This document shows positions 1 through 64,000 of a stretch of DNA of 64,000 bases, in pieces (within the stretch, counting starts at the first letter, position 1; each line of letters starts with the position of its first letter). Origin of the DNA: Psammoneis japonica (lineage: Eukaryota); NCBI GenBank assembly GCA_008632985.1, contig QPGO01000144.1, positions 1 to 64,000 on the forward strand, written 5' to 3'. A model generated the notes under the pieces. That model did no database searches. It was not told where the DNA came from and saw only the letters and a list, made by a program, of their open reading frames with translations. A program made the position numbers and the translations under genes.

Positions 1-1063
1 AGTTTTCCTGACGATGTTGTTGGTGCGGACAACTTCTGCGACATGTGGAATTCAACGTAACTTTGGCTTGTGGCAAAGGAAGGGAAGAGCGAGAAATTGT
101 GGAGAGGGAGTCCATTTCGTTGATTCCAAAAACTGTTTTTTGGATGCACGCGTTGAAATCATGCTTTTGAGCTTGGGACCAAACAACTCCATTCCAAAGC
201 CATTGGCAAAACACTCTGTGTCATCAAAATCACATTCATCAGGAAATTGGAAGGAAGGATCGGGGTCGACCTCGTCGTGAGACGGGGTGAAGTCATTGAC
301 CGCCATGGCAAGAGGTCAGTTGTGATTCGCACAGAAAGCACGTGGATGACAACAGTGCATGCTCAGGTGGAAAGCAGTTTGGGGAGAGGATGCACTGTTG
401 TGAATTGCGCAGATGATTGCACATGTAGAATGAGCACCCGAAGCAGGGCAGCACAAAAATTCCGGGAGGTGCTGGAAAAATGATGCTGGAAATGTGCATG
501 GGGGAGACTGGAGCGCACCGAACAGCAGAGGACACCAGTCAACATGGCGGGGTGTGTGTGATGTGGAGATGTTAAAAACCAAAATCAAAGACATCGGTTC
601 AATGCAGGTGTGAAATTAAGATCGAATGGAAATTTATAAAATCCAATGAAAGCGAAAATCGAACTAAATTGTCAAGAATGATTGAACACAAACAGATGAC
701 AAATGTCGGCATAAAACGGATTTAACAAGTTCAGTGTGTTGTTTCAATTTAAACGCGAAAACAACAATTGAAGGTGCAACAAAATTAACCACAATTGGCA
801 ACATTCGTGTGCAGAAAATTGAAAACCACTGTGTTGCCGCCTCTGATGTGGGCTCCGGGTTGTTGGCAGCATGCTTTCAGAGACCGCAGCAGAAATTGAC
901 ACACAAGCATTGGAGATCTGGGTCACTGCCCAGTCTTGTCCACAACCAACGGGGGGGTGAATGGGCCATCTTGAGTCTTGGAGAAGGTTGGTGGTGGCAA
1001 AAAGCCAGAATTGACATGTGGGGCAATTGTCATTGGCGCTCGCATGCACTGAGTCTCATGGGT

Positions 1064-1452
1064 GCAGAAACAGCACCACGCACCACATTGTTGAAAAATG
1101 AGGTCAAAAAACATGCAAGTTGTTGCAATGGATTTGATGCCATTGCAGCTGACAGAGCACACAAGTCTGCATTAGAAGAAATGTTCAAGTGTGGCATCGG
1201 AAAACACGTGATGGTGGCGGCATTGCAAGATGCCTGTCACTGTGCACGGCACAGTGATGAAAGATTGAGAAAATCTTGGTGGAGTGGTCTGTCTTGGTCA
1301 GTGTGTGGAATGCATGGGGAGCACAGGAGGAGAAGCCTGGCTGGCTTGCAATCTCACATCTCACAGGAACTGCTGTGCAGAAATGGGCACACCAACAAGA
1401 CAAGGGCGAGAGTGTTGCGGCACAGGCCATGACACCACATCAGCATTTGTTC
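1064..1452 (+). repeat. Dispersed repeat, homologous in permuted block order to 6637-6975
   Basis: 1277-1452 ~ 6637-6803 (ggtggagtggtctgtcttggtcagtgtgtggaa...ccatgacaccacatcagcatttgtt); 1064-1200 ~ 6828-6975 (gcagaaacagcaccacg...). Confidence 0.85.
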
Positions 1453-1859
1453 GCTTTGTCAGAGCCACGGTCTGTTGATGTGAGCATCTGAGAGCAATGA
1501 AGTCATCATTGTGTGGGTGTGAAACAAAATGACCTGCACAGTTGTTTGTTGCTGTGCAGAACCACATGGGTGTCAGCCACAGAAACAGCTCTGGGTTCTG
1601 CATGTGCGCATTGCACAATGTCAGATTTTGCAACAAATGCAAGCCAACCATGAGAGTTGCTGCAGTTGAAATGACATCACACTTGCATGTCAATTGGTTT
1701 TTGACATGTGTGACAGGCATCAAATAGAGCAGTGTGGGGCAGCATGCCCAGAGCATGTGCTCATTCAGACAAAACGGCATGGGGTGGCCTCTCGTTGCTG
1801 GCACAGAGCGCTCAGTCTCCTGTCCATGCCCATTGTGAGAGTCTCACAGTCACTGCAAT

Positions 1860-62480: not shown

Positions 62481-62981
62481 TCTTTTTGTTTGGCTGCACA
62501 TCTTGCTTTTCATCTTCAATGTCTGAACATTTGCTTGCCATGATGTCCAATGTCTCTTTGTGGCCAACTCTCTAACGGCTGTTGCTGCCATGCCAATCAA
62601 CTCCCACTCAAAAATCAACCAAGTCTGCACTCAACAATTTGATTCAAAAATCAATCTGACACCTGCGCACCAACAAACGGCTCTTGTGAACAAGCATCAA
62701 ATTGTTTCATCCTGCTTCCGCAGCTGTCTTTTTCCAATCAAACTTTTGGCTTGGCATGGCTTTTTGCCACCGTTGCCACTGCCACCCACAAAGTGCAGCC
62801 CGCCCCAGTGTGTCTGCCACAACTCAATTGAGCCAGTCATCGCAAGCCACCATTTTTGTTTTCCAAGAACAGCAAATTGCTTGTCAGTCATCCGTTTCTG
62901 CCTCTGAGAAAGACAAAGCAGCAAATCCCTGCACAGACTTTCAATGGAGATGAGGACCCACCCAGGAGCCCATGCGCAGCA

Positions 62982-63423
62982 TGCATGCGGACAAAAGGTC
63001 ATTTTTGTCATGACCTTTGTGACATTTAAACTGTGACACGTCGCCGTGATGCATTGACTCTTACAAGCAACTGGACACTGCACTCCTCCCCATGCATCAC
63101 GCGACCTTGCGGCTCTTGCCAACGTGACATGACACTGAACGTGTTTGACGGAACAGTGTGGGTGCGTGCAAAGGAACACACAGAACTTGTGCAGAGTTTT
63201 GCGCATTCAACAGTGATCAACGTTGCTGCAGACAACTCCCACTCAGGGTTTTGAACCCCTGGTCTTCTGCCCAACTGATGTTCACGCAATGAACCACTCC
63301 GCTGTGAATTTACAAAGCAGCGTGCATGCAGACAAAAGGTTGTTTGTGTCATGACCTTTGTGACATTTAAACTGCAACACGTCGCTGTGATGCATTGGCT
63401 CTTGCAAGTGGCTGGACATTGCA
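62982..63423 (-). mobile_element. TRIM-like element copy 2
   Basis: Direct repeats 62982-63082 and 63323-63423; same PPT and internal sequence as 42329-42767. Confidence 0.75.
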
Positions 63424-64000
63424 CATGCCCCACCCCCCATGAAGAAGCAGAGGACAGGAGGAGGAAGAGGAGGAGGACAAATGTGATGATGATTCCTCTC
63501 AATGCGAAATGTTCCCTGCGCATGAATGGGAGCCAGTCCCATTCATGTTGATTGATGAAGTTCAAGCCAAACTGGAGCGGCAAAGAGAGGTCACTTTTTC
63601 ATGGCAATCACATTTGTTTTTTGTCTGATTGTGCTGACATCATCACATTGATTTCTTGTTCTAACAGGAAGAAGGCCGCCGGTGATTTGTTGTCATTCGC
63701 AATGAACAAAAGTGACGATTGCGAGGAGGAGTCAATTGACCAGAAAACAAGCGAACTTCCAACCACTTGCATGGGTGAAGAGGACAAAAGCGAAGAGCCT
63801 GTTGACAATGAGCACAACCAAGTTGCACATTGCTCCGAGGGTGAAGAGGACCACAGCGACTTGGGAGGTTGTTTCGCAAGTGACAAAACTAACGGGGAAA
63901 CACACAATGTGCTGTGGTTGGGGATGACCCGTCCGCTCAATGCAAGGCAACTATCTTCTCAAGAATTGTGCTCTGAGAAGGGGGTGGCCTTAGCATCGTC

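Follow-up and report, generated by a model that had tools for sequence, protein, structure and literature searches.

The only known account of targeted A:T to G:C hypermutation in chromosomal DNA is a 2026 preprint on Bigelowiella natans, in which TpA changes to TpG/CpA in integrated DNA of nucleocytoplasmic large DNA viruses and virophages (Mettrop et al. 2026, bioRxiv 10.64898/2026.01.13.699255; our statements about this source refer to the parts of it available to us). The study followed 15 mutation-accumulation lines, whose nuclear mutations numbered 302; 231 of these lay in two inserts, one from a giant virus (186 kb) and one from a virophage (25 kb). Of the 231, 230 were A to G or T to C, and all of these GC-biased changes were at TpA. 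The rate, ~6e-7 per site per generation compared with 3.5e-10 elsewhere, was raised ~1000-fold, and only in some lines; the main target was transcriptionally silent. The same genome contains 124 TpA-poor, CpA- and TpG-rich clusters, reverse-transcriptase and DDE domains are over-represented among its TpA-poor coding sequences, and an ADAT2-like adenine deaminase was proposed as the agent (10.64898/2026.01.13.699255). Here we describe a 64,000-nt stretch of Psammoneis japonica DNA (contig QPGO01000144.1 of assembly GCA_008632985.1, positions 1 to 64,000; the whole stretch is called the window below) in which transposon-type DNA, including the remnant of a Ty1/copia-type element, has lost nearly all of its TpA, and which shows the long-term residue of such hypermutation.

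The likeness to B. natans lies in A:T to G:C transitions at TpA, some three orders of magnitude above background and confined to a region. We take the two to be the same phenomenon, here at saturation. The viral inserts measured in B. natans, as the preprint's available text gives them, retain a good deal of TpA (Rho 0.45; 3.3% of dinucleotides), in contrast to 0.6% in the depleted ~60 kb of the window. This DNA is near-saturated, contains copia and short-repeat remnants, and has no viral match. [quoted passage not shown] APOBEC3, acting on cDNA, and ADAR, acting on double-stranded RNA (dsRNA) with a preference for a 5' U, resemble the process proposed here in that deamination serves as a hypermutating defence, but their targets are single-stranded cDNA or RNA and their products strand-coordinated clusters, whereas both strands of the window are affected evenly.

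From its base composition the window should contain 4392 TpA; it has 527, which puts the observed/expected ratio (O/E) at 0.12, with CA at 1.70, TG at 1.62 and CG at 0.52. When the window was divided into 1-kb bins, 41 of 64 had a TA O/E of 0.10 or less, and 52 of 64 passed both cut-offs by which Mettrop et al. 2026 define hypermutated clusters. An earlier note, made from the sequence alone, had claimed a near-absence of TpA from transposon-rich DNA, with none at all at 2101-2400; both statements were confirmed. It had extended the depletion over positions 1-64000, which is right for most of the window and wrong as to uniformity. Two TpA-erased blocks, delimited by dinucleotide O/E and, like all intervals defined here by composition, without strand, occupy 1-52600 on the left and 55701-64000 on the right, the latter beginning at a sharp boundary at ~55600-55700. 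Between them lies an island of normal composition (52601-55700; 3.1 kb; TA O/E 0.65, CG 0.99), and three young repeat copies are depleted only in part (TA O/E 0.43-0.52, CpG near 1).

Taken jointly, with the island left out, the depleted blocks have O/E values of 0.09 for TA, 0.49 for CG, 1.72 for CA and 1.65 for TG. The additional loss of CpG stated in the earlier note is thus real in the depleted part, though uneven, given the 0.99 of the island. AT, AA and TT are without depletion (AA/TT 1.23-1.28), as is TC (1.02), and GC content is 47.8%, compared with 44.4% in the island. The stop trinucleotides of the forward strand follow suit: TGA occurs 1557 times, TAA 204 and TAG 135, the latter two being 8-11 times rarer. 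Contigs from sequencing run X1 (31-mer depth ~59) match the window sequence, and one of 10,455 nt spans the island together with both of its depleted flanks; because X1 may be the assembly's own data, this support is not independent.

We compared 27 aligned pairs of repeat copies, all inside the window, to establish the direction of change. The repeats of the window include family C, with three ~93% identical copies used for both polarisation and rate (20540-21774 on the forward strand, 35891-37208 on the reverse and 38737-40054 on the forward), and families A and B, which make up a strandless cluster of high-copy short repeats at 45327-48270 (TA O/E 0.2-0.5, CpG ~1, 31-mer depth up to ~28,000). 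The commonest difference between copies was a CA/TG doublet (206 sites), as arises because a single ancestral TA or CG mutates independently in two copies. Other differences were TA/CA (94), TA/TG (72), CG/TG (101) and CG/CA (83); the remaining transitions summed to 95 and transversions to 181, 70 of the latter from one poorly aligned palindrome. Columns with three states in families A and B comprised CA, TA and TG in 12 instances and CA, CG and TG in 2, with all four states in 1; therefore, most doublets derive from TA. In the repeat at 46246-46459, the window carries CA or TG at 10 of 10 reported variant sites at which other genomic copies, seen in a read set, carry TA. By these comparisons and by the outgroup proteins described below, four concordant lines of evidence in all, TA is the ancestral state and TA to CA/TG the direction of change. 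The earlier note had proposed an A:T to G:C process acting at TpA, and the differences between copies, together with the outgroups, bear it out and place its action after the copies separated: TA came out as ancestral and not derived, the change runs opposite to RIP, and deamination of 5-methylcytosine (5mC) does not account for the loss of TpA.

The rate of this change is far above background. Family C copies differ by 0.64-0.98% outside TA and CG and have lost an estimated 87-94% of their TpA per lineage, so that TpA was lost at 467-795 times the background rate, as estimated from the divergence of these copies and not from mutation accumulation. About one-fifth of CpG was lost over the same period, roughly 10 times more slowly. 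In the 23 pairs with at least 85% identity, TA sites showed 153 transition and 16 transversion differences in addition to 161 CA/TG doublets, and transitions made up at least 90% of changes at TA. AA was barely touched: we counted 34 A/G differences at positions preceded by A and 36 C/T differences at positions followed by T, among far more numerous sites.

The two outcomes, CA and TG, were interleaved along each of 13 copies (runs-test z from -1.64 to +1.85), and their counts in 60 depleted 1-kb bins showed no overdispersion (chi2 65.3, df 60, p 0.30). Local skew in the depleted bins was strong for AA/TT (chi2 442), AG/CT and GA/TC, with chi2 ranging over 442-496. We conclude that both strands of resident duplex DNA were mutated equally, with no strand clusters.

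The nucleotides flanking TpA influence its fate. Every NTAN tetranucleotide is depleted, and survival relative to the island spans ~40-fold, from ~0.009 (ATAT, ATAC/GTAT) through 0.05 (GTAC, ATAG), 0.16-0.18 (CTAG, CTAC, GTAA) and 0.28 (CTAA) to 0.38 (TTAA). Repeat alignments gave the same picture: at columns with an ancestral TA, 90 of 99 cells were mutated in the RTAY context, 160 of 226 in mixed contexts and 32 of 56 in YTAR, the order being identical in three families. Six TA were retained in all three family C copies, none of them RTAY. In mixed contexts the R[C]A/T[G]Y outcome, in which the pair beside the favourable flank is changed, outnumbered the opposite outcome by 101 to 59, and this bias suggests a per-strand motif T-A-Y (equivalently R-T-A). 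Together these data indicate a flank preference of RTAY over RTAR/YTAY over YTAR, best read as T-A-Y on each strand.

Outgroup proteins form the fourth line of evidence on direction. A degenerate Ty1/copia-type reverse transcriptase-RNase H remnant lies at 44121-45120 on the forward strand, in two frames and with in-frame TGA stops. When its frame at 44299-45120 was searched with the two TGA stops read as X, 3522 proteins matched at E<=0.001 (best 6.7e-61). Four homologues that were tested all match RVT_2, two above and two below the Pfam score cut-off; for the remnant itself, Pfam gave no family at E<=0.1 in a read-through scan of 42.9-45.6 kb. Its 274 aa contain no Tyr and 17 His, compared with means of 7.8 and 8.8 in 42 homologue segments. 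Four conserved Tyr columns are occupied by His (CAT/CAC) in three cases and by Phe in one, and four further Tyr of the best match read C, H, C and H. Motif tyrosines had been claimed to read His or Cys here, and at LHQDNKS (45085), LWCK (44226) and FNPH (44274) homologues do largely have Tyr: the H of LHQDNKS falls in a column with Tyr in 64% of the 42 homologues, and in the other frame upstream, the counterpart of the C in LWCK is Tyr in 26 of 28 homologues and that of the H in FNPH in 26 of 26. The remnant departs from conserved residues at 56 positions, of which 9 are reverted by CA/TG to TA and 8 by CA/TG to CG, the rest comprising 16 other transitions, 10 transversions and 13 multi-step changes. 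Accordingly, the element is old as well.

The same loss appears among proteins related to the remnant. The 150 best relatives have a median Tyr content of 3.1%, with three Tyr-free sequences (376, 301 and 207 aa) and several below 1%. The sources of these Tyr-poor relatives are metagenome assemblies (ENA, JGI/IMG, Logan), in each case one short contig. At 12 columns that are usually Tyr they carry Cys or His, one having 6 C and 3 H of the 12 and another 6 H and 3 C of 11 aligned. Six of them (P0019, P0032, P0053, P0101, P0108 and P0131) are 28-53% identical to one another and 32-35% identical to the remnant; this low mutual identity implies that several copia lineages bear the same scar. The Tyr-free relatives thereby hint, by their sequences, at many affected transposon lineages and perhaps several hosts. 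Among the best 80 of 542 confirmed metagenomic relatives, a set that the Tyr-free sequences lie outside, TA O/E ranged over 0.28-0.98, none of it extreme, with a median of 8 Tyr in the segment. Three loci within the best 80 (L022, L038 and L029) have a segment TA O/E of 0.27-0.37, 3-4 Tyr and one in-frame stop each, and may be partly mutated copies.

CpG decay is also active in this DNA, as the CG/TG and CG/CA differences between copies indicate, and TA and CG O/E correlate over 1-kb bins (Spearman 0.69). Even so, the two losses come apart along the sequence. The segment at 15001-17000 (no strand; TA O/E 0.02-0.07, overlapping long open frames) and that at 42001-43000 are TpA-free yet have a CpG O/E of 0.85-0.98, and on the right side of the island TpA has disappeared by 55601, with CpG still at 0.94 over 55601-55800 and 0.64 over 55801-56000. 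Therefore, TpA and CpG decay are separable. Deamination of 5mC at CpG, which operates here as well, cannot remove TpA, and the suggestion that TpA erasure depends on methylated DNA found no support in these CpG-retaining segments. The interval 14905-17081, at a GC content of 51-53%, holds four open frames that overlap, lie on both strands, measure 254-430 aa and belong to no family that we recognised.

The island consists of one intronless open frame, ~700 bp upstream of it and ~400 bp downstream. The gene lies at 53080-54885 on the reverse strand and starts at the first Met, residue 8 of a 608-aa stop-to-stop frame (53083-54906). It encodes a 601-aa protein with a signal-peptide-like N-terminus, 40 Tyr, a PLAT domain (E 6.4e-19) and a second, weaker PLAT stretch in the C-terminal part. 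The N-terminal half has a weak likeness to MACPF/cholesterol-dependent (thiol-activated) cytolysins of Bacteroidota (Pfam MACPF E 0.084; atlas score 0.86, which is a lead only), and the protein may be a horizontally acquired pore-forming protein. Word-based searches over limited length ranges found no close homologue, which does not show that the protein stands alone. By codon phase, the TA O/E of the gene is 0.92 at positions 1-2, 0.66 at 2-3 and 0.67 across the codon boundary; the values at the latter, mostly synonymous, phases mean that synonymous TpA is intact. Normal TpA and CpG in the island indicate that the process is regional and not genome-wide, and in the one single-copy gene examined, depletion was not equal to that of its surroundings. 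Either the gene is shielded from the process or it is a very recent arrival. Within the 17 kb examined, contigs of run X2, one of three runs that all stem from the same sample, fell only on 53731-54936, in the coding region of the island gene, and on 42098-42206, a 109-nt piece of a high-copy repeat. This pattern would fit a transcript-derived library; the run type was guessed to be DNA, and we make no claim about expression.

We consider it reasonably likely that this DNA underwent regional enzymatic conversion of TpA to CA/TG in transposon-derived, apparently silent DNA, with a DNA adenine deaminase as the most likely agent. Change at such a rate, symmetric between the strands and dependent on context, is within reach only of an enzyme or of a labile mark that an enzyme has placed. 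The process would act on chromosomal DNA in place, turning the T:A pairs of TpA into C:G; it would be confined to a region and would stop at the edge of a gene's transcription unit. A TadA/ADAT-type deaminase would convert A to inosine, which is read as G, and would be guided to silent foreign DNA by a mark in the form of a chromatin or small-RNA signal. On their natural tRNA substrates, TadA/ADAT enzymes act on an A that follows U, the site of bacterial TadA being U-A-C. Genes would be disabled by missense changes (Tyr to His/Cys, Ile to Thr/Met, Leu to Pro/Ser, with Val codons drifting too). Under such change TAA becomes CAA or TGA and TAG becomes CAG or TGG; because TAA and TAG are never created, long open frames persist in dead genes.

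Several points weigh against this interpretation. The deaminase is a candidate proposed from sequence, and what is seen directly are the products of mutation. Eukaryotic ADAT tRNA substrates are not known to share a 3' pyrimidine, so T-A-Y fits the site of the bacterial TadA only. The survival of tetranucleotides is expressed relative to an island of just 3.1 kb that is mainly coding, and the repeat-alignment cells are related by descent rather than independent, which makes their counts indicative only. A model with one rate per TpA is contradicted by the 8-10 TA retained in both copies of a family C pair, a misfit that agrees with an effect of flanking context. The island could be a recent arrival rather than a protected gene. 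Finally, because TpA is self-complementary, sequence data cannot distinguish A to G from T to C, and thymine chemistry fits the mutations equally well.

This last point underlies the alternative that best survives, although we regard it as distinctly unlikely: that thymine, and not adenine, is modified. A dioxygenase of the TET/JBP type would place 5-hydroxymethyluracil (5hmU), or a further oxidised form, at the TpA of silent repeats, and T to C mutation would be a by-product of this silencing mark. Strand symmetry and a duplex DNA target suit a mark placed after replication. Dinoflagellates offer a precedent, in that 5hmU is enriched on their transposable elements, is reported to prefer TA and is tied to silencing; there it is a mark and, in the available text of the source, not a reported mutator, and older work cited there found T replaced preferentially in both TA and TC dinucleotides (PMC11572971). 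In the window TC is at an O/E of 1.02, showing no depletion, unlike the TA and TC preference of dinoflagellates. This route would also have to assume a near-pure T to C outcome from 5hmU or 5-formyluracil at such a rate.

The earlier note had also put forward, as its second candidate, Pol eta-type (Y-family) error-prone patch repair, with a WA to WG signature, triggered in methylated DNA; the trigger would be lesions or mismatch processing in methylated heterochromatin. Pol eta errors are A to G changes that favour an A preceded by T or A, and the correlation between TpA and CpG loss over 1-kb bins speaks for such a route. AA, however, was no target: its 34 A/G and 36 C/T differences compare with several hundred events at the far rarer TA, and AA/TT are not depleted. 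The few transversions at TA (16 against 153 transitions) and the complete erasure of TpA from CpG-intact segments also disfavour this origin, which we hold to be very improbable.

Slightly less credible again is ADAR-like A-to-I editing of retroelement RNA, followed by reverse transcription and re-insertion. The presence of a copia remnant in the window would suit it, as would ADAR's preference for a 5' U and its targeting of repeat-derived dsRNA (10.64898/2026.01.13.699255, available text). Editing of sense RNA predicts TA to TG on one strand, whereas both outcomes are interleaved in each copy and balanced in each kilobase; moreover, copies diverged at TpA once already in place, and short non-coding repeats and flanking single-copy DNA are affected equally. 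Selection or biased repair fares no better and is comparably implausible, whether as avoidance of TA (as a transposase or nuclease target), as GC-biased gene conversion or as over-correction of T:G mismatches resembling very short patch (VSP) repair, to which the classic erosion of CTAG to CCAG/CTGG in enterobacteria would lend weight. Copies ~99% identical elsewhere have lost ~90% of their TpA, which requires a rate and not a bias acting on rare mismatches. GC-biased conversion fails because AT, AA and TT are undepleted; CTAG outlives ATAT, ATAC and GTAC, and loss is not limited to it; and dead repeats are under no selection. A sequencing or assembly artefact, or a modified TpA base misread by polymerases, is the least probable of all, for although the sole read set containing the stretch may be the assembly's own source, 31-mer depth stays uniform at ~59 along one contig that joins the island to its flanks, with the island normal in the same molecule, sites read CA or TG and never the CG that a symmetrically misread modification would yield, and the Tyr to His/Cys replacement recurs in different copia lineages whose metagenome assemblies are unrelated.

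Returning to enzymatic conversion of TpA, the preprint bears on its novelty. The earlier note knew of no described system with this signature, and that statement no longer stands, as the B. natans preprint describes it (10.64898/2026.01.13.699255); our literature search found no second description of TpA to CpA/TpG hypermutation beside it. Relative to the available parts of the preprint, what is new here is that transposon-type DNA is saturated over tens of kilobases, that RTAY is preferred over YTAR, that both strands are hit alike, that TpA loss is separable from CpG decay, that the process halts sharply at a gene and that stops are spared. These features constrain an enzyme: it acts on duplex DNA and on both strands equally, requires T before A, prefers a following pyrimidine, does not need CpG decay and comes to a halt a few hundred bases or less from a gene. 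For base editing, an adenine editor of DNA with natural TpA specificity would be of interest. A missense type of genome defence that leaves frames open would change how relics of transposons and viruses are recognised, as illustrated by the copia remnant that Pfam missed. A bolder proposal, which we judge somewhat more likely to be wrong than right, is that a chromatin-guided T-A-Y editor operates in a second organism besides B. natans and erases TpA over whole silent domains and not only in viral inserts. If this were true, TpA erasure would be a widespread, stop-sparing counterpart of RIP among eukaryotes, and a target that erases itself would make TpA content a clock for the duration of silencing.

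Candidate foreign DNA in the window comprises the copia remnant, the high-copy short repeats and a weak likeness to DDE_Tnp_4 (PIF/Harbinger-type transposase) at 58664-59218 on the reverse strand, below the cut-off at E 0.0088. The short repeats reach 31-mer depths of up to ~41,000 in run X1, compared with 59 for unique sequence, implying hundreds of genomic copies. Repeats had been named as the target of the process, a view that the data do not support: depletion is deepest in DNA that is single-copy at the 31-mer level and milder in high-copy repeats. That single-copy DNA is the most depleted could reflect age or region-wide targeting.

Twenty open frames of at least 250 aa lie in the erased DNA, one of them of 1041 aa. 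Simulated sequences of the same dinucleotide content had a mean of 1.08 such frames and none longer than 364 aa, and this excess identifies the frames as former genes. The longest, at 28222-31344 on the forward strand, is the stop-to-stop frame containing the Tyr-free open reading frame that had been noted at 28318; it has 0 Tyr, 46 His and 52 Cys and no recognisable family. It is a former coding region, kept open since the process makes almost no stops. A Pfam scan of 201 stop-to-stop frames of at least 110 aa gave PLAT in the island gene as its sole match above the cut-off, the rest being weak, and most of the 20 long frames had no recognisable family in the Pfam scans. Word-based searches over limited length ranges found no homologues of the 1041-aa frame or of the DDE-like frame, which does not establish their isolation. 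The 1041-aa frame had no match in the atlas or PDB, PDB searches with three other frames gave nothing useful, viral contigs contained no relatives of the two window proteins searched, and the scan of the window found neither Rfam families nor tRNA genes.

The repeats and long frames also have internal structure. The cluster at 45327-48270 is a composite of A (~400 bp) and B (~350-560 bp) present three times in alternating orientation, with a 1-kb palindrome centred at ~47305; it may be MITE-like or satellite-like in type. Local tandem duplications occur inside long frames at 3879-5172 (~640 nt), 22999-23376 (189 nt), 27874-28116 (129 nt) and 30169-30494 (30-39 nt), and the 30-39-nt units of the last encode an acidic, Lys-rich stretch of low complexity in the 1041-aa frame.

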